From Turneriella sp. (GTDB lineage Bacteria; Spirochaetota; Leptospiria; Turneriellales; Turneriellaceae), in contig CBDIID010000003.1 of NCBI GenBank assembly GCA_965279515.1, positions 32,001-96,000 on the forward strand: a stretch of DNA of 64,000 bases, written 5' to 3'. The translations under genes and the position numbers were made by a program. The notes beneath the pieces were generated by a model that saw only the letters and a program-made list of their open reading frames with translations, had not been told where the DNA came from and made no database searches. Positions 51,368 through 64,000 of the stretch are shown here, one piece after another. Position 1 is the first letter of the stretch. Each line of letters begins with the position of its first letter.

Positions 51368-51781
51368 ATGAAGAATAGACTCACAAGTATCATCATCATT
51401 GCTGCCCTGGCCTCTTTCACCGGTGCCAGCTATGCCAAATCGTCGATGCGTGCCCCGGAGCCGGCGCCTGATCCGACAAAAAAGAAAACCGGCGAAGAGT
51501 GCAAAACTGCGGATGAATGCCAGGCGCACCATTCCTGCAGCAAAGCCGGTGAAAAGAATGTCTGCACGGCGCACCCGCGCCCCAAAATGAAGCCCGGGGT
51601 CGTGACTATGCAAATGGGCAGCCAGGCTATCGAGCCGTTTGACCCGAAAAAAAAGAAAGCTGGTGAAGAGTGCAAAGTTTCTGACGAATGCCAGAAGCAC
51701 CACGAGTGCAAAAAAGACGGCGACAAAGGTGTCTGCACAGCGCCTCCGGCTCCAAAACTGCCGCCCGGTGTCGTGACCTGA
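51368..51781 (+). CDS. Secreted Cys/His-rich protein with two 46-aa repeats
   Basis: AGGAG SD, signal peptide ending ASYA, and 2 x DP.KKK.GEECK..DECQ.HH.C.K.G.K.VCTA.P.PK..PGVVT. Confidence 0.85.
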   Translation: MKNRLTSIIIIAALASFTGASYAKSSMRAPEPAPDPTKKKTGEECKTADECQAHHSCSKAGEKNVCTAHPRPKMKPGVVTMQMGSQAIEPFDPKKKKAGEECKVSDECQKHHECKKDGDKGVCTAPPAPKLPPGVVT

Positions 51782-52825: not shown

Positions 52826-53656
52826 CTAATTTGGAAAGAAGATCGCCTGCGGGCGATAAATCCAGAACTCTCCCTCGGTAAGATTGCCGAGATTTAACTC
52901 GCTGGTAATGACAAAACGTTGGCCGCCGATATTCTGATGTGCCAGTTTATAATGCAAGGTGCCCAGGACTTCATAGATCACGGCGGTATGGTCAGGCGCC
53001 CCGAGCGTTTCCGTTCTTGTAACCCCATTGGGAAGCTTGCCGACAACTTTCACCGAACGAAATTGAATGATATCACCCGGAAGAACTTTCTCGGTCTTGG
53101 GATTAACCAACTTTCCGAAATCGAGGGGACGCTGCCAATCTGCGCCATTCAAATCCAATGCCTCAGCCGCAAGATCCCAGCATTCCCCAGCCCCCACAGG
53201 CTTGCCCAGCTTACTGTGGGCAAAAGCCAGCACTTTAGAATTCAGGCCCAGACCGGGAAGATTTGCGGGAACATTTTCCGTTACTTGAATAGCGGGGATG
53301 AAACCAATTCCGCCAAAACGCAATGAACCCGGCTTTGTGTCCCCATAGACCACGAGTTTATACGGCGCCGGACCTTCTTTGAACAAAAAAATGACATTAA
53401 ACTTACCGTCTTCAGCAACCGGAATGCGCGTCATTTTTTTGGCGCCACCTTCTTTGGCAAATTCGAAAACAAGGGTTTTCATCGATGTTTCACCGGAAAA
53501 TGTGGCCGAATATTTTACGACGCCAGGTACCGGGTTCAGACTGAAAGCGGATTTTCCTCCCGGATAATACTGGAAATCCGCATCGGGCTCTTTTGCCGAA
53601 AGTGTCAGGGCGAACAGGATCCCCAACGCAAGCAAGATTGTCTTCTTTGGCTTCAT
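52826..53656 (-). CDS. Exported papain-like/CHAP-like cysteine hydrolase domain protein
   Basis: Signal peptide, GKPVGAGECWDLA, PGDIIQF, PDHTAVI, HQN. Confidence 0.7.
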   Translation of the reverse strand: MKPKKTILLALGILFALTLSAKEPDADFQYYPGGKSAFSLNPVPGVVKYSATFSGETSMKTLVFEFAKEGGAKKMTRIPVAEDGKFNVIFLFKEGPAPYKLVVYGDTKPGSLRFGGIGFIPAIQVTENVPANLPGLGLNSKVLAFAHSKLGKPVGAGECWDLAAEALDLNGADWQRPLDFGKLVNPKTEKVLPGDIIQFRSVKVVGKLPNGVTRTETLGAPDHTAVIYEVLGTLHYKLAHQNIGGQRFVITSELNLGNLTEGEFWIYRPQAIFFPN

Positions 53657-54237
53657 AGCGTTTAGGATAAGCCAATGTTTTCGAGCTTACGTCAATGAAT
53701 AAAAAGACAGAATTGTCATAAAAGCACACTGTGAATTATTTATTAACATGAGTGCGTGATTTTGAAAGCGGCTGAGTGGGCATGTTTGAAAAGGCAAATA
53801 CCGCGCCATCAATGCGTCCGTAGCGTCACCCGGAGGAGTACCAAACAAAGGCCCCGTTTGCGCGACGGGGGAATCTTAGGTGCGCAGCTTGTAAATATTA
53901 TTATCTGGAGTAATGGCGCCTGTGCGCGCGGTTATCTGCTTAATTGTTATTACTTTTCGTTTTGCCTCCCTAAAACCTGCCTTTTCGGCAGAGAGATCTA
54001 TAGTGCTTTAAATGATGGTGAGCAGCAATTTATCATATACTAAATGTCGTCAAAATTAGGTGTATTTCTTTTTTGATGCCCGAACTGCGTACGTCAGACG
54101 CGTACGTATTGACAGGCTATCGTCGATTGCTTCCTTGTGCGCTGCGTCATGTCGCTCGCAGCATATGCAGTTTTTTGCATACAGATGGAAAGAATCCCGG
54201 TATTCTTTATTAATAGATGTCAATTTTTGTGAAGATT

Positions 54238-57200
54238 ATGGCTGTAAAGAAACGTGGTGTTAAAATTATCGGGCGCAATTGTCGCTCGCCCCTTTTCTTT
54301 TGCATTCTGGCTTTCGTCTCCTTGTGGTCGCCAGCCTGCACCGGCAGAGCAACCATCGAAATTCTTCGTACAGAAATTTCCGTGAATTCGGTCATTGTCG
54401 CTAACGGTAGCGAAGTGCGCCTCGGTAGCACGGTTGTCGGTCAGACGCTGGTGAGAAGCATTGTCGTTAAAAACCTGTCAGAGGCAGATTTACCGCTCAG
54501 TGTTACGAATTCGAATGCCGGGCTATGCTCACTTTCCGGGGGGAATACCCGCGTAGCGCGCGGTGACTCGGTTGCGTTGACCCTATCTTGTGCGCCGGCA
54601 AGTGCGGGCACGGCTTCCGGGATTCTCGAGTTTAGTTTTGCTGATAAGCTTGCCGCGGTTTTCGTGAAATACCAGCTCGATGTTACGCCTTCACCGGTAC
54701 CCGAAATCCGCGTGCGCGTCGGCGGCAGCGAACTGCCCACTAACAGCAGCTATAATGTCGGTAATATTCTTGAATCCGCAAATTCGGTCGTTACTTTTAC
54801 CATCGACAATTTAGGAATGTTGCCCCTGCAGCTTACGGCTGTGCCCGCTGTTGCAGTTTCGGGAACGCATGCAGCAAATTTTCCCGCGGGAAACCCTTCG
54901 CTAACTGTTCCCGCAGGCGGCAGCACAACTTTCGACATCACCTTTTCACCGGGATCGCCGGGCGTGAAGGCGGCGGCGATTACGATCGCTAATAATGATC
55001 CGGATGAATCGGGTTATGTCATTAATTTAACAGGAACGGGTGTTGCCATTGTGCCGGAAATCCAAGTAACGATGGGCGCTACCAACTATAATCACGGCTC
55101 AACTTACACGTTCGCCAGCACAACGCAGGGCAGCACCGCAAGCGCAATATTTGAAATACGCAACCAGGGAACCGCAAACTTGGTTTTAAGCGGCACGCCG
55201 CGCGTTGCGATAACCGGCGCCGATGCCGGTTATTTTAGTGTGCTCACGCAACCCGGCGGGATTATTTTGCCAGGGGCCAACAGCACTTTCTCTGTGCAAT
55301 TCAACCCGATTACCACTGGAGGGAAAACAGCAACGCTTGTCATCGCTAACAACGATGCGGATGAAAGTTCCTATACTATCACTCTTTCCGGGAGTGTGAA
55401 TGCACCGAATATCGTGGTTGAGCGTAACAGTGTGGTACTGCAATCTGGGATCAGCGCCTGTGACTTGGGCTTGACGGTTGCAGGCGCTGGCTCAACTTCC
55501 GATACGATTACGATCCGCAACACAGGCAACCAGGCCCTTTCTCTTGGCAGTGCATCCTTTACCGGCCCGGACGCTGCAGAATTTGGCATATTTGCCTACA
55601 CCACATCGTTGGCTGCCGGCACTTCTATTTCTGCCACTTTTTATGTAAATGCCAGTACCATGGGAAATAAAACGGCAACGCTGGTCATCCCATCGGGAGA
55701 CTACGATACACCTTCTTTTTACATTACGGTTACCGCCATGGCTGGCCTCTGGACCCGGAAAAGATCGAATAGCGTTGAATGGTTAAAGAGGCAGACTTTT
55801 TCTGTGGCGAATACGGGAACAGAAATCTACGTTATCGCCGGTTATGATCCCAACTATAATGCGATAAATCACATACACAAATCGACAAACGGTACCGTAT
55901 GGCAGCCTGTGTCGCAGACTTCCGCTTTGCCTGTAGCCAGCGGCGGCGTGGGAGTCTGGTTTGCGGGTAAATTATTTCACTACGGCGGCAATGGCACTTC
56001 GAGTCTCGTCAACCTGGGTGCCTACCGGAGCACCGATATGGGTGTCACTTGGACAAAATATGATACTTCTTCATGGCTGCATCAAACCAGCATGGCGTCT
56101 GTAATCCATAATGGAAATCTCTTCCTCCTTGGTGGGCGCATTGTTGCATCCAATTCGGTGCATGGCCAGATTCGCAGCTCGGCGGACGGAGAAAATTGGA
56201 CGCTATTGTCTTCAACAGGTTGGCCTGGCGCATCAGACAGCGGCGCGGTAAGTTTTGGTGGAAAAATCTGGTTGATAGGGGGCTTTGACGCAGGCGGCGG
56301 TACCACGGCTAACATCCATTCTTCAACGGATGGCATTACCTGGACTCATGTCACCGGCAGTGCACCTTTTGGTCAATATTTTGGTAATCAGCTCGCGGTT
56401 CACGCCGGAAAAATCTGGCTAGTATCTAGTGGCAATACTTCTGAAGTCTGGAGTTCCGCCGACGGCTCGGCTTGGACCAAGCAAGTTGCCGCGCCTCCAT
56501 GGGGAAAACGCTACAGCGGAACGCTCGTCAGTATGGGCGGGAAGCTATATCTTATTGCAGGAGTCGGCCCCCAAGGCACGACAGATGAAGTCTATTCATC
56601 CAGCGACGGAATAAACTGGACGAATGAAAATGCCAGAGGGCAGATCTGGCGCGGCCGTTGGTCGCACCAGGTTGTCAAATTAGGTAGTAAATTGTTGCTC
56701 ATGGGTGGCACGGATGGTCAGGGCCATCGTAAGGACGTTTGGGAGTCTACAAACGGCGTCGATTGGACGAAAAATCCCGATGCGCCTTGGAGTGAACGAA
56801 TTGGATTACGATCGATCGTCGTCGGTTCAGAGGCTTTTGTGATCGGCGGAGGCACCAGCTCCGGCTCGAACCTGCTAAAAAACGATGTCTGGAAAACCAC
56901 AGACGGCAATACGTGGACGCAAGTCACTGCCAATGCAGGCTGGGGCCGGCGATATTACCATGGCTTACAGCACTTTGGCGGAAAATTCCATGTATTCTCG
57001 GGTACAAATGAAAGCAATGGACGTTATTGCGATGCATGGTCTTCTAGCGATGCCCTGACCTGGTCTCAGGCTGCAACTTCTGCCCCCTGCGCTGAAGGTG
57101 CAGCTGTCCTGCAATTCCTGGGCAAGATCTGGAGTTATTCCGGCTGGAACGGCTTTTACATAAATTCGAATCAATCGACGACTGATGGTATGACCTGGAC

Positions 57201-57474
57201 CTCTAACACAGCGGTATCATGGACTGCAAGGGTCGGCGCCTCAGCTTTTTCGTATAAAGGATATGCGCTTGTTATGCTTGGTTCCAATAGCTCTTATTTA
57301 ACGTCTACGATGTATTCAAGCGACGGCGTTAACTGGGCATATCTGGGGGTGCCGGCAGCACTGGCTGGTCGGGATTACCAGCAGATGCTACTCTTCAATG
57401 ACGGCTCGGGCGATAAGATGTGGATGTTTGGCGGTGCTTATTACAATGATATCTGGACCTTTGAACTACCATAG
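54238..57474 (+). CDS. Large surface protein: ASH/choice-of-anchor-D Ig domains plus kelch-like beta-propellers
   Basis: Repeated PEI.V...I.N.G...L.L...IANND.DE..Y.I.L.G units, followed by many GK.W..GG...VW.S.DG..W repeats. Start uncertain. Confidence 0.85.
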   Translation: MAVKKRGVKIIGRNCRSPLFFCILAFVSLWSPACTGRATIEILRTEISVNSVIVANGSEVRLGSTVVGQTLVRSIVVKNLSEADLPLSVTNSNAGLCSLSGGNTRVARGDSVALTLSCAPASAGTASGILEFSFADKLAAVFVKYQLDVTPSPVPEIRVRVGGSELPTNSSYNVGNILESANSVVTFTIDNLGMLPLQLTAVPAVAVSGTHAANFPAGNPSLTVPAGGSTTFDITFSPGSPGVKAAAITIANNDPDESGYVINLTGTGVAIVPEIQVTMGATNYNHGSTYTFASTTQGSTASAIFEIRNQGTANLVLSGTPRVAITGADAGYFSVLTQPGGIILPGANSTFSVQFNPITTGGKTATLVIANNDADESSYTITLSGSVNAPNIVVERNSVVLQSGISACDLGLTVAGAGSTSDTITIRNTGNQALSLGSASFTGPDAAEFGIFAYTTSLAAGTSISATFYVNASTMGNKTATLVIPSGDYDTPSFYITVTAMAGLWTRKRSNSVEWLKRQTFSVANTGTEIYVIAGYDPNYNAINHIHKSTNGTVWQPVSQTSALPVASGGVGVWFAGKLFHYGGNGTSSLVNLGAYRSTDMGVTWTKYDTSSWLHQTSMASVIHNGNLFLLGGRIVASNSVHGQIRSSADGENWTLLSSTGWPGASDSGAVSFGGKIWLIGGFDAGGGTTANIHSSTDGITWTHVTGSAPFGQYFGNQLAVHAGKIWLVSSGNTSEVWSSADGSAWTKQVAAPPWGKRYSGTLVSMGGKLYLIAGVGPQGTTDEVYSSSDGINWTNENARGQIWRGRWSHQVVKLGSKLLLMGGTDGQGHRKDVWESTNGVDWTKNPDAPWSERIGLRSIVVGSEAFVIGGGTSSGSNLLKNDVWKTTDGNTWTQVTANAGWGRRYYHGLQHFGGKFHVFSGTNESNGRYCDAWSSSDALTWSQAATSAPCAEGAAVLQFLGKIWSYSGWNGFYINSNQSTTDGMTWTSNTAVSWTARVGASAFSYKGYALVMLGSNSSYLTSTMYSSDGVNWAYLGVPAALAGRDYQQMLLFNDGSGDKMWMFGGAYYNDIWTFELP

Positions 57475-58675
57475 AATGTTCCCGTAGAAAATACGAAGCC
57501 CTGCTTAAAAAATCCTCCTGATTTGGTGTAAACAAATAATTGTTCCGATCGATGTGCCCCAAAAGCAGACTCCCAAAATAAACCTCGATCTGCATGTCCG
57601 CCATGAACCTCAGTCCGATCGGGTAGCCGTTAAAGGAATTGCCGATAAATATCCGGTGTTGTTTGTAGTTGGTGTAACCGCGGTCATTTACGATGCGCAC
57701 GATGCAATCCTCAGGGTAGGCGGGTACTAGATCGCCAGTGTAGGAAATTTCAGATGGTCGGTAGAACTCTGCCGGCGTCCTCATATGCAAGGCTTCATGG
57801 GGGCGTTCATTGTTGAAATCATGGCGCCACTGATCAAATGAAATCTGGTGCAGTTTCAGATCGCCGCGAATGCGCCCCTGCAGTTCCGTGCGGATGTCTC
57901 TGTGCATACGCTCATGTCCGCCATTCTGCGCTGGCTTTCCCGGATCAATGCGGTCCAGAGAAATTCCCAACGACAGCCACCAGACTGACAATTTTGTCAG
58001 GCCAAAGAGTCCCCACGATGATGCGAAAGGAGTTCCGTTGTCAGAGCGAATAATTTCCGGCAGACCATAGCGTTTGAAGAGTCTGGCAAAGTGTTGTTTT
58101 ACATTGGAAATATTGCCCTTTTCCAGTATCTGTATCGACAGGATGTACTTACTGTACTCATCGCGAACTGTCAGTGGTTCGCATTTCTCTGCATGTGCAG
58201 TGTACCACCAGCCCTTGAAGTCAACCGTCCATAAGTGATTGGGATGCTTCGCCTTTTCGCGAAGCATCAGCCTCTCTCCGGTTCTGCGGCGCTTCTTTCC
58301 TCTTGGCCTTGTCAGACCAGAGCGTGCCAGAAGCCGATCGACTGTAGGAACTGAAATATCGCCTTTGCGCTCCGGGTAAAGCCTGCAGAAAACCGCATAG
58401 ATCTTCTTGGCTCCCCAGCGCGGCCGGTTATTCTTTATGCGAATAATATCGCAGATTGTTTCTTCGTCAGTGCGGTTCGGATTGCCTCCTGGTTTTCGTG
58501 ATAACTCCGCCAATCCGGCTAAGCCTTTTTCCAGGAACCTTGCCTTCCACTTGTACCCTGTCTTGGTGCTGATACCAAACTCGCGGCACAGCTCTGTGAA
58601 ACTCTCTACGCCCTCCAGGGCGCGAAAGACAAAAGATCTTTTCTCTTCCATTTTGGTAACCTCTTTCCACGGCAT
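57395..58675 (-). CDS. IS481-family DDE transposase (C-terminus reads through into the neighbouring gene antisense)
   Basis: MPWKEV, ELCREFGIS.KTGYKW..RF, WTVDFKG, IRSDNG.PF, P.QNG.HER.HR, ERPHEAL...TP. Confidence 0.92.
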   Translation of the reverse strand: MPWKEVTKMEEKRSFVFRALEGVESFTELCREFGISTKTGYKWKARFLEKGLAGLAELSRKPGGNPNRTDEETICDIIRIKNNRPRWGAKKIYAVFCRLYPERKGDISVPTVDRLLARSGLTRPRGKKRRRTGERLMLREKAKHPNHLWTVDFKGWWYTAHAEKCEPLTVRDEYSKYILSIQILEKGNISNVKQHFARLFKRYGLPEIIRSDNGTPFASSWGLFGLTKLSVWWLSLGISLDRIDPGKPAQNGGHERMHRDIRTELQGRIRGDLKLHQISFDQWRHDFNNERPHEALHMRTPAEFYRPSEISYTGDLVPAYPEDCIVRIVNDRGYTNYKQHRIFIGNSFNGYPIGLRFMADMQIEVYFGSLLLGHIDRNNYLFTPNQEDFLSRASYFLREHSMVVQRSRYHCNKHRQTSTSYRPSRH

Positions 58676-58770
58676 TCGGTCCTCCTGCCGCAGGCAGGCT
58701 AGAACCCTTTGCGGAGCAAAGTGTTACCGATGTCTTGATAGAAATGTGTTACCTATGTCGTGATAGTACC
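57475..58770 (-). mobile_element. IS481-family insertion sequence, right end apparently lost
   Basis: Left end GGTACTATCACGACATAGGTAACAC with a second ACATCGGTAACAC copy. No matching right end found. Confidence 0.8.
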
Positions 58771-58849
58771 ATCTTTGCCGCGAAGACCCGAGCACGCGAC
58801 CCAGCCGAAGGCGATCGCCGCGCAGCGCGTAAAATTTGTTGTCTGAAGT
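58771..58849 (-). repeat. attC-like site 1, truncated by IS481
   Basis: Matches the right part of the 61000-61213 and 63227-63442 elements, ending in GTAAAATTTGTTGTCTGAAGT. Confidence 0.75.
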
Positions 58850-58888
58850 AATTGCGCCTGTGAGCCCGGGCAGGGATGGCCGGGCGAC

Positions 58889-59707
58889 TCAGAAGCCGTA
58901 ACCTATAGATACAGTTAGATGGATGTCATGCACAAAAGAATTTCTACCAATATCAGGCCAAACCTCTGCATTCGAAAATAGATACGTTAATTGGTAATAA
59001 AGATTAAATCTAAACTGCCAGCTATACCAGAAGCGACCTGTCATGCCCACGCCAACACGCGCAGTCGGGCCATGAACAAATACGCTAGTTGGGGCAGTTG
59101 TAATTTGTGTTTGTCCATTTGGTGCCCCAAGCGCCGAGATAAGACTATTATAACCTGCGTATGGATAATAAGAACCTAAATCATACCCAACTTGGCCCAG
59201 AAGATCGAAAGAACTAAAGCCACTCCCGGGATACAAATGTATCTCCTTACCAATCAGTAGTGTATGGAGCGAAACAATCAAGCTATCAGAAATATGTTTA
59301 AAGTTCGAAGTATCGGTACAATACTGGCCGCAATAGCTAGTCTTACCCGCGTTAATGCGTTGGAGTTGGGAACGATACAGATAAGAAAGCAATGTTGACC
59401 ATCGTTCTGATTCGTAAGCTTGATAGTTAATGCCAAATACAAGGGTAAAAATAGTCGCATCAGCTGACTGCTGAGAACCATTAGGTACTGCGGTGGAAAC
59501 CCCCAATGCATTTGTATACTGATTCTCTCGAGTATAAATGCCACCGATTGCTGTGCCGATGCCAAACTCAAGAATAATATTATTCTGAGGAAAGTTAGAT
59601 TTAGCTTCTTGTGAAGTTTTCTCGACTCTTTTCTCAATCGCTTCTATTTTCGCAACGATAAAAGCGGAAAATACGACGATACAGACAAGGAAGAAAAATC
59701 TCACCAT
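58889..59707 (-). CDS. Cassette-borne exported/outer-membrane beta-barrel-like protein
   Basis: Low-GC ORF with N-terminal hydrophobic signal, amphipathic strands and C-terminal GYGF. Confidence 0.7.
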   Translation of the reverse strand: MVRFFFLVCIVVFSAFIVAKIEAIEKRVEKTSQEAKSNFPQNNIILEFGIGTAIGGIYTRENQYTNALGVSTAVPNGSQQSADATIFTLVFGINYQAYESERWSTLLSYLYRSQLQRINAGKTSYCGQYCTDTSNFKHISDSLIVSLHTLLIGKEIHLYPGSGFSSFDLLGQVGYDLGSYYPYAGYNSLISALGAPNGQTQITTAPTSVFVHGPTARVGVGMTGRFWYSWQFRFNLYYQLTYLFSNAEVWPDIGRNSFVHDIHLTVSIGYGF

Positions 59708-59764
59708 TAGGTAAATACAAACTGTTTTACAGATTGTAAAGACAAGGAAATTTTCTGGGGTTTG

Positions 59765-60906
59765 TCTTTAGTCCGGAGACATATGTTACAGTGGGGTTGC
59801 TGAAATAAGCGCCCGCCCTTAAGCGGTTTTTACCACAAAACTAAACTTAAGGGAGCGGGCAAATGTACGATTACCAAGAAGCATATCGGCGCATAAAGCG
59901 CAATTTTCATTACTACAAGGGAGATGTCACAGTCCGTATGCGGGCTATGCAATTGTTAAGGGTGCTACGGACGATTACGAAAGGACGATCCGTAGAACTT
60001 GCCTCTGAACTACAGGGTGTCAGGCGGCAGTATTTTTATTTCTGGCTGCGACGGCTGATTGCCACCGACTATGATTTGCAGAGCCTGAAAGGGCGTTCAA
60101 AAAGGCCACACTGCTCACGTAATGCCAAACCAAAATCAGTTATTCTGAAAGTGAAGGAAATTCGTAAGCTCGACGAATCTGGCGGCCATACCATCGCTTT
60201 GATTCTACGACGTGATTTTGGTATCCGCATCGCCGGTTCAACGGTCTGCAACATTCTGAAACGGGAGGGTATTAGCAAGGTTTATCGCTACCAGAAACGC
60301 AATGAGCACACGAAGCGGTATAGCGTAGAAAACCCTTTAAATACGGTGCAAACAGACAGTGCCTGGACGGGGTTTGCAGACAATCACGGTAACAGGGTTT
60401 ATTATTTTCCAGTGATCGATGATTGTTCGCGGGTGGCGACGGTTCATGTCTGCGATTCAAAATCCGGAGATGAAGCGATCAAAGGGATGCAAAGATTCAT
60501 TGAGGCATTCGGCAAACCAGATCAGGTTCAGACCGATAATGGTGTGGAGTTCACCAATCGATTTACTTCACGCAGAAATGCGAAACGGGAGAAAGACGGA
60601 ACATACGCTTTGTTTGAGCAATTTCTGTTCACACAGGCCATACCACATCGGCTAATCAAGGTTCGGACACCTGAGCATAATGGCAAGGTCGAACGGTTCA
60701 ACGGAACCTTAAAAAGGTTTCTTCAACGCAGGGCCAAAGATGGAATGAGCATCCTCCAATTTCAGACGTTGATTGATCAGCACATGGACTGGTACAACCG
60801 CCGCCGGCCACATTGGTCATTGAACGGGTTGACCCCGCACGAGCGGTTCTATGGAGTCCGCTTGGCAAAAATCGCATAAGTGTACGATATCTCCCCGGAC
60901 TCTACA
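59765..60906 (+). mobile_element. IS481-family insertion sequence with 15-bp target duplication
   Basis: Imperfect 26-bp IRs (TCTTTAGTCCGGAGACATATGTTACA / TGTACGATATCTCCCCGGACTCTACA). Direct repeat ATTTTCTGGGGTTTG at 59750-59764 and 60907-60921. Confidence 0.9.
59863..60879 (+). CDS. IS481-family DDE transposase
   Basis: RSKRPH, VQTD, IDDCSR, VQTDNGVEF, PEHNGKVERFNGT, YN..RPH.SL.G.TP. Confidence 0.92.
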   Translation: MYDYQEAYRRIKRNFHYYKGDVTVRMRAMQLLRVLRTITKGRSVELASELQGVRRQYFYFWLRRLIATDYDLQSLKGRSKRPHCSRNAKPKSVILKVKEIRKLDESGGHTIALILRRDFGIRIAGSTVCNILKREGISKVYRYQKRNEHTKRYSVENPLNTVQTDSAWTGFADNHGNRVYYFPVIDDCSRVATVHVCDSKSGDEAIKGMQRFIEAFGKPDQVQTDNGVEFTNRFTSRRNAKREKDGTYALFEQFLFTQAIPHRLIKVRTPEHNGKVERFNGTLKRFLQRRAKDGMSILQFQTLIDQHMDWYNRRRPHWSLNGLTPHERFYGVRLAKIA

Positions 60907-60999
60907 ATTTTCTGGGGTTTGAAACTCAACAAGAAATATTGATCCAGCTATGTTCACCGCCGACACGAGGTCGGCGAATAACAAAGGCGCAATTATTTC

Positions 61000-61213
61000 A
61001 GACAACGTGGAATTTACCTGAAGTTGAGTGACGCTTCGTTCAACTTTGTATTCTGTAAGGCCATTCTGCGTCACTCAATCTGCCCGAAGCGCCTCGCGGC
61101 AAAGCACAAAACAAGCGTCCCGCTTGTGCTTTGTCCGCGATCTTCGGCGCGCAGGGCCGAGCACGCGAGGAGCTGCGGCACCGCAGCGGCGCAGCAGGTA
61201 AATTTTGTTGTCG
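61000..61213 (-). repeat. attC-like site 2 (~214 bp)
   Basis: AGACAAC-gtgg-AATTTACCTG ... CAGGTAAATT-tt-GTTGTCG terminal stem with branched internal hairpins. Confidence 0.78.
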
Positions 61214-61276
61214 GCAGTACTTGCGGCATTTCGAGGGCAACCTGCAAACCACGGAGGGTTTGCAGGAGTATTTTAG

Positions 61277-62528
61277 CAGTCTCCTGAAAAACTCTTGATT
61301 TTCTGGATTTTCTGTGCGTATATGAAATATGCGCGGGAATAAACCAGATCAAGATGATCTTTATAGTTACATTTCACTCGAGGAGCGGGTGCCGATGTCG
61401 CATCCGCTGCGTCCCATGAGGCAAATTATCGATGATGTGCTCAAAGCAATGAGCAAGAAATTTGATAAGGTTTATTCGAAGACAGGCAGGCCGAGCATTC
61501 CACCAGAGGTACTCGTTAAGACGCTTTTCCTGCAGGTGCTTTATGGAATCCGCAGCGAGCGTCTGGCTTTAGAGCAACTCGATTTCAACCTGCTCTACCG
61601 ATGGTTCGTCGGCATTACCATGAACCAGAAGATTTGGGACGAAACAGTATTCACCAAGAATCGCGATCGGCTCTTTGCTGGTGAAGCACTCGACGCATTC
61701 TTCGCGGCAGTTATCAAGGAAGCAGATAAACGTGGCTTGCTATCACATGACCATTTCAGCGTAGATGGTACGCTAATCGAATCCTGGGCTTCGCTGAAGA
61801 GCTTCAAGAGCAAAGATCACCCGGACAATAATGGCGACGATGGCGATCCGGGCAACCCCAGTGTCGATTTTCATGGCGAAAAAGACGCAATGACACTCAC
61901 CAATCCACGACGGATACACAGGCAAAACTCTATCGTAAAGGCAAGGGTAAAGAAGCACGCCTGTACTACATGGGCCATTTGCTGATGGAAAATCGCAACG
62001 GGCTCGCGGTGGCTGCGAGTGCAACACAGGCCGGATATCACGAAGAACGAACATCTGCTTTACAAATGTTGAAATCATTGAAGCGAAGCGGAAGAATAAC
62101 CATGGGCGGGGACAAGCATTACGACGATCTGGAATTTGTCCGAGACCTTAAATCGATACAGGTCACCGCGCATGTTGCGCAGAATATCCATTCCCGACGC
62201 CATCATAGTGCGATTGATGAGCGGACAACCCGGCATTCAGGCTACGAAGTGAGTCAGCGGAAACGCAAGCGCATAGAAGAGATATTTGGCTGGGCGAAGG
62301 GCTTCAGTACTTTGCGGCGACCGCATTTTCGCGGACTGAAGCGCATTGGCGCATTTTTCAAGTTCGTCATCAGTGCGTATAACCTTATGAGGATACGAAA
62401 TCTATGCCACGGATAGCACCTCTGCGAATGAAAAGACCGGGCGCCCTGAAAACGCACAACCCACCTGCATTTCCTGAGGCGCTAAGTTCCGAAAATTCCT
62501 GCTCTATCCCCCATTTTTCCGGAGACTG
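61277..62528 (+). mobile_element. IS5-family insertion sequence with TTAG target duplication
   Basis: IRs CAGTCTCCTGAAAA / TTTTCCGGAGACTG. TTAG at 61273-61276 and 62529-62532. Confidence 0.92.
61329..62416 (+). pseudogene. IS5-family transposase, frameshifted near 61880
   Basis: GRPSIPPE, FNLLYRWFVG and HFSVDGTLI in the first ORF. Continues in the -1 frame as RRNDTHQSTTD...YMGHLLMENRNGL...RKRIEEIFGW. One A is missing in GAAAAAG. Confidence 0.85.
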
Positions 62529-62951
62529 TTAGATGGTTAAAACCCGTTCATTAAGCACTGATTGCAGCTTCGCGATATTGCGCAATGTCGGATTAGCCTT
62601 CTTAGGGTTCTCAAAATTCTGATAATTCTGGTAAGGAATATTCATTTTGGCTGCCAATTGCTTTTGAGTCAAATTGCGCTTTTTTCTGGCTAATTTAAGC
62701 CAAATAGCAAAGGCTACGTTCTCACTCGGCGCTACCAAATGAATTCCTTTCCCGGCTTTGTGCGATGGCTGAGGAATCTCTTGCTCTCTCAGGTCTATGG
62801 ATTCTAAGTACCCATCCAATGCTTCTTTAGCATGGGTCAAAGCTTCATCCAAGGAATACCCAAAAGTAAGGCAGCCAGGTAAGTCTGGGAATTCAACGCT
62901 AAAAGCGCCTTCTGATTTCGAATGAGTGATTTTCGCCGGATACTTAATCAT
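62529..62951 (-). CDS. hicB: HicB antitoxin with C-terminal HTH
   Basis: YPA.I...EG.F.VEFPDLPGC.TFG.SLDEA...AKEAL, followed by an Xre HTH (LTQKQLA). Confidence 0.93.
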   Translation of the reverse strand: MIKYPAKITHSKSEGAFSVEFPDLPGCLTFGYSLDEALTHAKEALDGYLESIDLREQEIPQPSHKAGKGIHLVAPSENVAFAIWLKLARKKRNLTQKQLAAKMNIPYQNYQNFENPKKANPTLRNIAKLQSVLNERVLTI

Positions 62952-63127
62952 TTTAGCCCACTTTGTTTAAGAATTGCATTCAGAGTTCCTTTCGGGATAT
63001 CTGAATTGCCATGCACCGGCACAACAACGGTTGAGGCGCCTTTCACCATGATGTGATGGGAGCCCTTTATACGATCCAGAACCCAACCGTTTTTTTTGAG
63101 CTTTTTCAATAGCTCCTTGCCTGACAT
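62948..63127 (-). CDS. hicA: HicA toxin (59 aa; not in ORF track)
   Basis: MSGKELLKKLKKNGWVLDRIKGSHHIMVKGASTVVVPVHGNSDIPKGTLNAILKQSGLK, with an ATGA overlap with hicB. Confidence 0.95.
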   Translation of the reverse strand: MSGKELLKKLKKNGWVLDRIKGSHHIMVKGASTVVVPVHGNSDIPKGTLNAILKQSGLK

Positions 63128-63132
63128 CCGGA

Positions 63133-63161
63133 ATAATACACATTATTATATGTATCGTCAA
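63133..63161 (-). promoter_or_regulatory. hicAB promoter with overlapping palindromic operator
   Basis: TTGACG-N17-TATTAT, 5 nt before ATG. An ATACAT-N8-GTGTAT near-palindrome overlaps the spacer. Confidence 0.7.
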
Positions 63162-63226
63162 TCTTTTCCGGGTTTTCCTCTGCGTTCCGAAGCCGCCGAA
63201 ACATGGATGTTTCGGGCAATAATGGC

Positions 63227-63442
63227 ACCTAACTTGGATTTTACGCTGACGTTTTTTGACGCTTGTGTCATTTATTCAGTCTGTAAAGCCGATTTGCGTC
63301 AAAAAATGTGGTCGTAGCGGCTCGCAGTGGCGCGCAAAAGCAAGCGTCCCGCTTGCGCGACATCTGCGATCTTTGCCGCGAAGACCCGAGCACGCGAGGA
63401 GCTACGGCACCGCAGCGGCGCAGCGCGTAAAATTTGTTGGGC
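63227..63442 (-). repeat. attC-like site 3 (~216 bp)
   Basis: ACCTAAC (RYYYAAC)-ttgg-ATTTTACGC ... GCGTAAAAT-tt-GTTGGGC (GTTRRRY). Confidence 0.8.
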
Positions 63443-63507
63443 GACGTCACGGGCCTAACGGCAAAAATATTTGACACAATGTCTTGTGTGAAGTGTTGTG
63501 TAGCTAT

Positions 63508-63708
63508 ATGGCAACGAACTTAGCTATAGACAACAAGCTATTAAATGAGGCTCTTAAAATAGGTCATTTCAGATCTAAAAAGGACACCGTTAATACGGCT
63601 TTGCGTGAATTTATTCAAAAACGACGCCAAAAGGATATCCTGAGTTTGTTTGGAACTATAGACTTTGATTCTAAGTATGACTATAAAAAAGCTCGTAGTC
63701 GGATATGA
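63508..63708 (+). CDS. vapB: VapB-type antitoxin (DUF2191-like)
   Basis: MATNLAID.KLL.EALKIG...SKKDTVN.ALREFIQ.R.Q..IL.LFG. Confidence 0.88.
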   Translation: MATNLAIDNKLLNEALKIGHFRSKKDTVNTALREFIQKRRQKDILSLFGTIDFDSKYDYKKARSRI

Positions 63709-64000
63709 ATATTATTCCAGATACCCCCGTCTGGTCGTTAGTTCTGCGAAGAGATATGCCCAACCGTGAAGTGCAAAACCTGTTTGTCCGATTCATTGAA
63801 GAGGGACGTGTCATCTTGCCCGGTGTTGTTAAGCAAGAACTTCTGTCAGGGGTTAGAAACCAAGCCCAATTTGATGCCTTGGCAGAGCAACTGACTCATT
63901 TTCCGGTAATATTAGCTACAGACGCAGATCACATACTTGCGGCTAAATTTTTCAATAAATGTCAAAAGTCAGGTATCCAGGGCAGCCATATCGATTTCTT
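63705..64000 (+). CDS. vapC: VapC PIN-domain toxin (3' partial; not in ORF track)
   Basis: MNIIPDTPVWS...QELLSG...AAKFFNKCQKSGIQGSHIDF, with an ATGA overlap with vapB. Runs off the window. Confidence 0.9.
   Translation, partial: MNIIPDTPVWSLVLRRDMPNREVQNLFVRFIEEGRVILPGVVKQELLSGVRNQAQFDALAEQLTHFPVILATDADHILAAKFFNKCQKSGIQGSHIDF

Follow-up and report, generated by a model that had tools for sequence, protein, structure and literature searches.

The subject of this analysis is the right end of a 64,000-nucleotide stretch of DNA (the window; G000:C3:32001-96000) from the spirochaete Turneriella sp. (assembly GCA_965279515.1, contig CBDIID010000003.1), in which long repeated elements lie between small gene modules. 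Comparison of the sequences shows that these elements are the distal sites of a 77-site cassette array whose cassettes have been shuffled at AAC. The enzyme is probably a tyrosine recombinase that lacks the I2 insertion of integron integrases (IntI); it would act on the folded bottom strand, which it would pick by two G·T mismatches. Towards the G·T recognition step by itself we lean with less assurance. In outline the system appears to work as sedentary chromosomal integrons do, but it departs from their definition in three respects, namely I2, the extrahelical base, and size.

Cassette arrays and the fold of their sites

An original prediction, made from the letters of the window, had placed three related elements near the window end, and all three are present. 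Site 1 (58771-58840, plus strand) is truncated to the right third of an attC-like site (model positions 144-226) and is part of the cassette with a gene for an outer membrane protein (OMP). Site 2, of the hicAB cassette, is a full site with a core of 206 nt (61004-61209; hidden Markov model (HMM) match and covariation), and site 3, of the vapBC cassette, is a full site of 208 nt (63231-63438; HMM match and folding); in both, the plus strand is the predicted folded strand. A fourth, degenerate site, the most distal of the array, had been overlooked at 53762-53914 on the plus strand (nhmmer, model positions 53-219, E 1.8e-7; repeat family D3). The hairpins described earlier occur in both full sites, CAAGCG/CGCTTG at 61112-61126 and 63341-63355, GCT(G/A)CGG/CCGCAGC at 61172-61187 and 63401-63416, as do the 4- and 2-nt spacers and an inner stem of about 10 bp, which covaries.

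An iterated HMM search gave 156 matches in the genome, far beyond chance, of which 130 lie in two same-strand arrays and 26 are scattered. Array A (C3 85.8-169.9 kb) has 77 sites and array B (C3 3,734-3,805 kb) has 53, all on the plus strand; the window holds the distal end of array A, as the original prediction had supposed. Six genomes were used for calling sites (this one with both arrays, the relatives G011 and G002 with the arrays fetched, and G003, G005 and G013 with parts of theirs), which yielded 420 full sites and 396 site-to-site cassettes. Arrays reach up to 215 sites (G011). A DNA search with the element found matches in 11 of 13 genomes of the same genus and in one of 27 other genomes; a plasmid search with site 2 gave no match.

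Among 113 pairs of cassettes that were at least 97% identical, identity of at least 90% extended to the left site in 110 and to the right site in 16. The left site is kept with the gene, and therefore a cassette consists of a gene and its left site, is read on the minus strand, as originally proposed, and has the plus strand as its bottom strand. The plus-strand reading of the cassettes was rejected on the same grounds. The junctions printed for 11 long cassette pairs all fell within AACG. A cassette 99.5% identical between G002 and G011 has different neighbours in the two genomes, and 100%-identical cassettes were found shuffled. These comparisons indicate that cassettes move as units cut inside AAC. 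The proposal of a cassette array thus holds: the copies are clustered, co-oriented, spaced by one gene and shuffled at the AAC/GTT point, rather than scattered in random orientation.

Toxin-antitoxin (TA) modules are frequent cargo. Beyond the window, 150 cassette open reading frames (ORFs) were scanned with Pfam, and 17 cassettes resemble type II modules; this number includes DUF433/DUF5615 pairs, which we take to be TA modules.

The AAC..GTT length of the sites is 161-241 nt, with medians of 206-214 (420 sites, six genomes). The great length noted in the original prediction is real, and the core geometry differs as well, in that the extrahelical base is missing, G·T pairs are present and the outer stem has 18 bp. 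The 200-bp default limit of IntegronFinder, given in the original prediction as a reason why such sites would likely be missed, did not turn up in the literature consulted. AAC and GTT are invariant, and the RYYY part of the consensus is looser than in canonical attC. The ends of site 3, ACCTAAC and GTTGGGC, had been described as perfect; both agree with the RYYYAAC/GTTRRRY consensus, yet they come from different cassettes and so do not complement one another. The spacer measures 6/8 nt, compared with 7/8 nt in canonical attC.

RNAalifold analysis of 53 array-A sites gave an L stem that closes a three-armed junction, with compensatory changes in 37 of 49 pairs. The covariation score of the 21 core pairs, which related sequences inflate, was 0.426, compared with 0.100 after shuffling and at most 0.096 after sliding. 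Compensatory changes were almost all Watson-Crick. In 52 distinct sites, mismatches at one column aside, the L stem was free of bulges on the L'' arm, so no extrahelical L'' base was seen; one site type has an extra base on the opposite arm. In these models, the sites of about 208 nt are predicted to fold as four-way junctions without an extrahelical G.

Each cassette has ends that can pair with one another over about 18 nt. Watson-Crick pairs occupy positions 4-9 and 12-15 in 379-390 of the 396 cassettes; at position 11, by contrast, no cassette (0/396) has a Watson-Crick pair and 384 have G opposite T on the plus strand. Mismatched (shuffled) cassette ends pair at a level of about 0.3 at positions 13-16. 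At the mirror position on the L arm, in the stem running into the first branch, G·T was found in 388, T·T in 19 and a Watson-Crick pair in 8 of the 415 sites in which the arm was found (420 examined), and other families have this G·T in 55 of their 57 sites. A third G·T, present in 52/52, is the closing pair of the L stem. Wobble pairs are limited to such fixed positions, other changes being Watson-Crick. Of 122 sites, 110 fold more stably on the plus strand; for site 3, z was -3.0 on the plus and -1.95 on the minus strand.

An I2-less recombinase, attI-like heads and their distribution

The genome encodes four tyrosine recombinases. Two of them branch with Xer, one is a long-branch outlier and the fourth, P0001 (C3:2926093-2927193), is the candidate integrase. 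In aligned blocks P0001 has 24 residues where VchIntIA has 65, and it scores 161 bits on TIGR02249 against a cut-off of 265; the nearest solved fold to its predicted model is 2a3v. The catalytic R, K, HxxRH and H/Y motifs are invariant in 16 homologues. P0001, with its catalytic residues intact, groups with IntI against Xer in a quick tree, and its identity as XerC/D acting at dif was rejected in view of the separate Xer-like pair in the genome, the different branch and the different motif spacing. The canonical IntI with I2 that the original prediction had in view as a possible partner was not found: in this genome and five array-bearing relatives no protein passed the cut-off and matches broke at the I2 region. 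A motif spacing of about 100 residues was absent among the best 150 representatives (10 of 151 unmeasured). The long-branch outlier, a diverged tyrosine recombinase at C3:2781225-2782130, branches near IntI; a small group of four sites is situated about 23 kb away, at 2,805-2,809 kb.

At the head of each array we searched for the partner of the first cassette's end, and one clear match (16-17 of 18 positions) was obtained per head: C3:170674 and C3:3805400 here, and likewise in G002, G003, G005, G007, G012 and G013. The head in G011 was identified by eye. The first of these lies about 74.7 kb past the window end, in keeping with the earlier supposition that an attI, if present, would lie beyond position 64000. 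The heads are half sites, with two inverted arms around a 6-bp spacer that starts AA|C and no hairpin. Since those of G007, G012 and G013 have AACT and not AACG, the crossover is narrowed to AAC. attI and attC differ in spacer sequence. When attI sequences were inspected by eye, a TTGAC/TTGCC-like hexamer was seen repeatedly at about 35 nt from the crossover, with no clear -10 element there.

Both arrays of this genome have attI-like heads with the integrase gene at a distance: P0001 is about 0.8 Mb from array B, the nearer one, and about 2.8 Mb from array A. A location of the integrase beside the arrays was rejected here, since the head of array A is followed by MlaD/ABC-type genes (by eye) and that of array B by a cytochrome P450-like gene. 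In seven of eight loci of the same genus (G002, G003 with a split gene, G005, G007, G011, G012 and G013), an orthologue of P0001 stands divergently at the attI end of an array. The integrases and attI regions of G002 and G011 (L043, L046) are near-identical; these proteins are 39% identical to P0001, and the site family is the same.

The direct-repeat box GTTCTA-N5-GTTCT precedes P0001, a lexA-like gene and a PA0069 radical-SAM gene. In G005, G007 and G011 the box has just two exact matches per genome, at the integrase and at lexA. G002 has an exact box at lexA only, its integrase box being off by one base; the box was not seen in G012, G013 and G016, G013 having no exact match. In this genome the region upstream of recA is without it. 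From the shared box, which in this genome is at C3:2927215 (-), 4249241 (+) and 4316039 (-), we infer a putative SOS control of the integrase and a candidate LexA regulon of small size.

In many homologues the N-terminus is a domain that has two invariant Trp residues. It matches the N-termini of XPB and UvsW with Z of 6.3-6.8 and rmsd of 1.7-1.9 over 54-59 residues, and 4o66 with E of 0.13. The N-terminus of P0001 differs from this domain and is predicted to be a three-helix structure. Folds of the HARP/XPB type read mismatches or junctions (the paper search supplied no source).

With a profile of 16 homologues (E <= 1e-60), homologues were found in 121 of 151 genomes of the class. Twenty of these 121 loci, on long contigs, were chosen to span genera, and 14 of them have at least two end-signature pairs beside the integrase homologue, in divergent and tandem layouts, the array mostly following the integrase in tandem. 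Signature pairs in the class loci numbered 82 at position 11, compared with 1-6 at each control position, and the sites measured 125-289 nt. One of these genomes, G105, has two integrase-linked arrays. An array in it, of another family, contains a 217-nt site of the type found in the genome of the window (L200, G105:C1:1531000-1550999), which points to cassette exchange across families.

Across all phyla, 80 loci were sorted by motif spacing into 42 I2-less, 17 IntI, 14 Xer-like and 7 unclassed, beside which 29, 1, 4 and 0 signature pairs were found, respectively. The signature occurs in 16 of the 42 I2-less loci, with at least two pairs in four: a Bacillota metagenome-assembled genome (MAG; sites 275-352 nt), a Spirochaetota MAG and two Flavobacteriaceae. 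For the KDR-to-HxxRH spacing, the I2-less group has 57-63 residues and the Xer class 65-68. A quick tree of 91 cores places the 17 IntI on a single branch (96) among the I2-less rows, and the true Xer fall outside (100); the nesting of IntI is weak, with forks of 80-84 that are drawn open. Five rows classed as Xer by spacing fall inside the I2-less group.

Proposed mechanism, alternatives and known systems

In the mechanism that we propose, the plus strand would fold into an R box, a 4- and 2-nt spacer, an L stem and a three-armed junction. When a cassette is excised as a circle, its two ends would zip into an 18-bp outer stem, which would place a G·T ten bases from the core on both integrase-binding arms. 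The other strand would have C·A where the bottom strand has G·T, and this difference would provide strand choice and correct orientation. Under the control of LexA, the integrase at C3:2926093-2927193 would serve the two arrays in trans, cutting at AA|C and exchanging one strand, with resolution left to replication as for IntI. Circles would integrate at attI in the right orientation. They would also be better substrates than array-form sites, because the ends of an array-form site belong to different cassettes, and capture would therefore be favoured over loss. TA cassettes such as hicAB and vapBC would likely stabilise the array.

Several points weigh against this account. The recombination is read from sequence comparison: the public reads (four runs, one study) are contigs only, with joints that are artefacts of the repeat graph, and are uninformative on circles; a look through the sequencing runs listed no RNA. 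I2 is held in PMC7790495 to be necessary for cassette capture. The site caller required AAC/AAT followed by G and a near-perfect inner stem; it lost site 3 of the window and may enrich for regular sites. The L arm has T·T instead of G·T in the 19 sites mentioned, and the IntI family search had no positive control among 14 control genomes. The integrase adjoins neither array in this genome, and the G001 copy has no site within 14 kb upstream. Across phyla, 26 of the 42 I2-less loci are without any signature pair, so that membership in the protein group does not imply an array. Finally, the second diverged recombinase (C3:2781225-2782130) stands as a candidate alternative enzyme.

The chief alternative keeps the same cassettes and the same enzyme but assumes a classical double-strand reaction with two exchanges, the hairpins serving for cruciform extrusion or regulation and the G·T marking asymmetric arm preferences. 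It is consistent with an enzyme that lacks the insertion held to confer single-strand activity (PMC7790495), with an attI whose symmetric core and 6-bp spacer resemble those of Xer sites, and with compensatory changes that are almost all Watson-Crick, so that both strands can fold. On the other hand, it would put the binding arms about 200 bp apart, whereas the 18-bp pairing joins the ends of one cassette and covaries cassette by cassette, and the crossover is confined to AAC even though the attI and attC spacers are unlike. We consider this reaction unlikely.

It is less likely still that another enzyme moves the arrays (host XerC/D, the diverged recombinase at C3:2781225 or a lost canonical IntI) and that the I2-less gene is a bystander. 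The distance of the gene from both arrays here and the 26 of 42 homologues without a nearby signature would fit such a role, but the gene stands at the attI end in seven of eight loci of the genus and beside arrays in 14 of 20 loci of the class, six array-bearing genomes have no IntI over the cut-off and no match spanning the I2 region, and the recent shuffling of 100%-identical cassettes speaks against a long-lost enzyme. The least probable alternative, scarcely credible to us, is that the elements are structured RNAs, terminators or REP/MITE-like repeats and that the G·T is a G·U of the plus-strand transcript, as the strong covarying structure with wobble on one strand might suggest; it appears largely refuted by the linkage of sites to the neighbouring genes with which they travel, and Rfam gives no match (window 53000-64000), the wobble is at fixed positions only with other changes Watson-Crick, and the sites are confined to co-oriented arrays ending at an attI-like half site.

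The folded-strand system preferred here resembles the superintegron of Vibrio cholerae (VCR, VchIntIA, 2a3v) in its long co-oriented array, the AAC/GTT core and the crossover in AAC. It shares with it also a bottom strand predicted to fold with an R box, an unpaired spacer, an L stem and a branched terminal part, the divergent integrase beside attI (in the relatives), the TA cassettes and a putative SOS control. Unlike the V. cholerae system, the integrase is without I2 and has an extra N-terminal domain, the pairing of the cassette ends extends to about 18 bp instead of 7, the extrahelical L'' base is absent, G·T stands at +10 in both arms, and one integrase apparently serves two distant attI-headed arrays. 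Canonical attC sites are given as 57-141 bp, their strand being chosen by extrahelical bases, spacer and terminal structure (PMC5027507); the sites here, at 161-241 nt, are longer. The chromosomal integrons of Treponema are likewise spirochaete chromosomal arrays with folded sites bounded by AAC/GTT; their attC sites are described as 63-132 bp with a protruding G and use IntI, and Treponema is called the only spirochaete clade found with integrons (PMC3607928).

XerC/XerD, archaeal XerA (NF040815) and integrative mobile elements exploiting Xer (IMEX) such as the CTX phage also lack I2, and the attI here resembles their core with its 6-bp spacer; for CTX, an I2-less enzyme is described as able to use a folded single strand (PMC7790495). 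Unlike the present system, Xer systems build no cassette arrays, and a separate XerC/D-like pair is encoded in this genome, set apart in the tree with a support of 100. Smyshlyaev et al. describe an integron-like subgroup of tyrosine recombinases in which the insertion is not fully conserved, and yet call it essential for integron function; the passages concerned report no arrays or sites for insertion-less members (PMC8138268). Our literature search, from which subscription journals were largely out of reach, found no description of an I2-less, G·T-marked cassette system and no paper linking Turneriella with an integron.

In the account accepted in PMC7790495, integron integrases gained single-strand cassette shuffling via I2, and intermediates are lacking. 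For Firmicutes, integrons are described as extremely rare, and for Bacteroidetes as nearly as rare, a single complete integron having newly come to light in Bacteroidetes proper (PMC9024848). Tentatively, as a possibility that we place short of probable, the data may point to a second and possibly older class of integrons with I2-less integrases that read G·T-marked folded DNA, many of them via a fused HARP/XPB-like mismatch-sensing domain. Such integrons would be common in the spirochaete class studied here and present in Bacteroidota and Bacillota, and canonical IntI would be a branch of them that acquired I2. On that view cassettes were captured before I2 existed, and integrons seem nearly absent from those phyla because they escape detection. 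Tied as it is to arrays of up to 215 sites, the I2-less relative opens both the role of I2 and the origin of integrons to direct tests, with two G·T pairs as a precise and mutable, proposed recognition rule. The same pairs would serve as a search signature independent of sequence, for a pool of cassettes likely to be missed by programs that rely on I2 and canonical attC, and the cassette-specific, self-complementary 18-bp ends may bear on how cassettes are made.

Features of the window end

The modules between the sites, taken originally for simple single-function units, are single genes or gene pairs in part interrupted by three insertion sequence (IS) elements, which had been overlooked together with a fused end of the hicAB cassette. 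Site 1 is cut by a left-truncated IS481-family element (57513-58770, minus strand; transposase ORF 57395-58675, rve/IS481 matches), the right end of which abuts the middle of the site. This family (about 1335 bp) has eight large copies, the one in the window and seven near-full ones at C3:97890, 136788, 143166, 156717, 3740580, 3749016 and 3765036, none of them outside the two arrays and all oriented alike. In the seven other copies the element stops 18-19 nt short of where a site's AAC ends, at the outer edge of the 18-bp cassette-end stem, and four of them have a 4-bp duplication. From its positions, this array-confined element is likely a site-targeting IS.

The gene of the OMP cassette (58889-59707, minus strand) encodes a predicted outer-membrane beta-barrel protein of 272 aa with a GC content of 41%. 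The OMP-like label given to it earlier draws on language-model neighbours alone (ESM Atlas, 0.97, including PF13505 clusters), and Pfam and NCBIfam gave no match. The 3' end arm of the cassette (R'' and extension, 58838-58862, plus strand) can pair with 60982-61006 (inverted repeat I1, 25 nt, 92%), a G facing a T at position 11. The 5' end arm (extension and R', 60982-61006, plus strand) contains the crossover inside the AAC at 61004-61006, as placed by inverted-repeat pairing and cassette comparisons. Between gene and 5' arm lies an IS481-like element (59765-60905, plus strand; ORF 59863-60879), flanked by 16-bp direct repeats at 59749-59764 and 60906-60921 (D19). The end sequences of this cassette (window 58838-58888) are common to a large cassette family found at about 20 further places in both arrays. 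Some members in array B hold several kb of chromosomal-looking genes, e.g., clpP and glutathione peroxidase.

The 3' end arm of the hicAB cassette (61207-61224, plus strand) has the same sequence in the intact G002 copy and is followed by a terminator-like hairpin at 61241-61266. An IS5-family element (61277-62528, plus strand) with a frameshifted transposase (61329-61985 and 61970-62416) and a TTAG target duplication is inserted directly after the hicB stop codon. The antitoxin gene hicB (62529-62951, minus strand; PF15919 and HTH_3) is accompanied by the gene of the toxin hicA (62948-63127, minus strand; PF07927), a bacterial type II module with a promoter-like consensus match at 63161-63133. 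The cassette recurs in the arrays of G002 and G013. The G002 copy has matching ends and no IS5, whereas the ends of the window copy mismatch each other; pairwise alignment with the G002 copy shows that a foreign 5' end (63216-63233, plus strand) is fused onto hicAB in place of its own. The proper hicAB 5' end was found at C3:113421-113440, fused to a short cassette, and both hicAB-related junctions lie at the edge of the outer stem.

The vapBC cassette extends beyond the window. Its 3' end arm (63436-63454, plus strand) has a partner just past the window end that differs at position 11 only. Both of its genes are on the plus strand, opposite to the cassette direction: the antitoxin gene vapB (63484-63708; PF09957) and a gene for a vapC-like PIN protein that runs off the window (63705-64000; PF01850, E 6e-4, under the curated cut-off on the partial sequence).

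Short cassettes without an ORF are strongly amplified in G011, where families of about 280 and 375 nt (L046, L061-L070) reach tens of copies that are 85-100% identical. In the arrays of this genome, a similar ORF-less family of about 194 nt has about 11 copies.

Between the degenerate site and the IS481 remnant, a protein of 1085 aa with Ig-like and Kelch repeats is encoded at 54217-57474 on the plus strand; it may be cargo of the cassette family that shares the end sequences of the OMP cassette. Further to the left, 51368-51781 encodes a small protein that is internally duplicated in a Cys-rich part (138-nt repeat).

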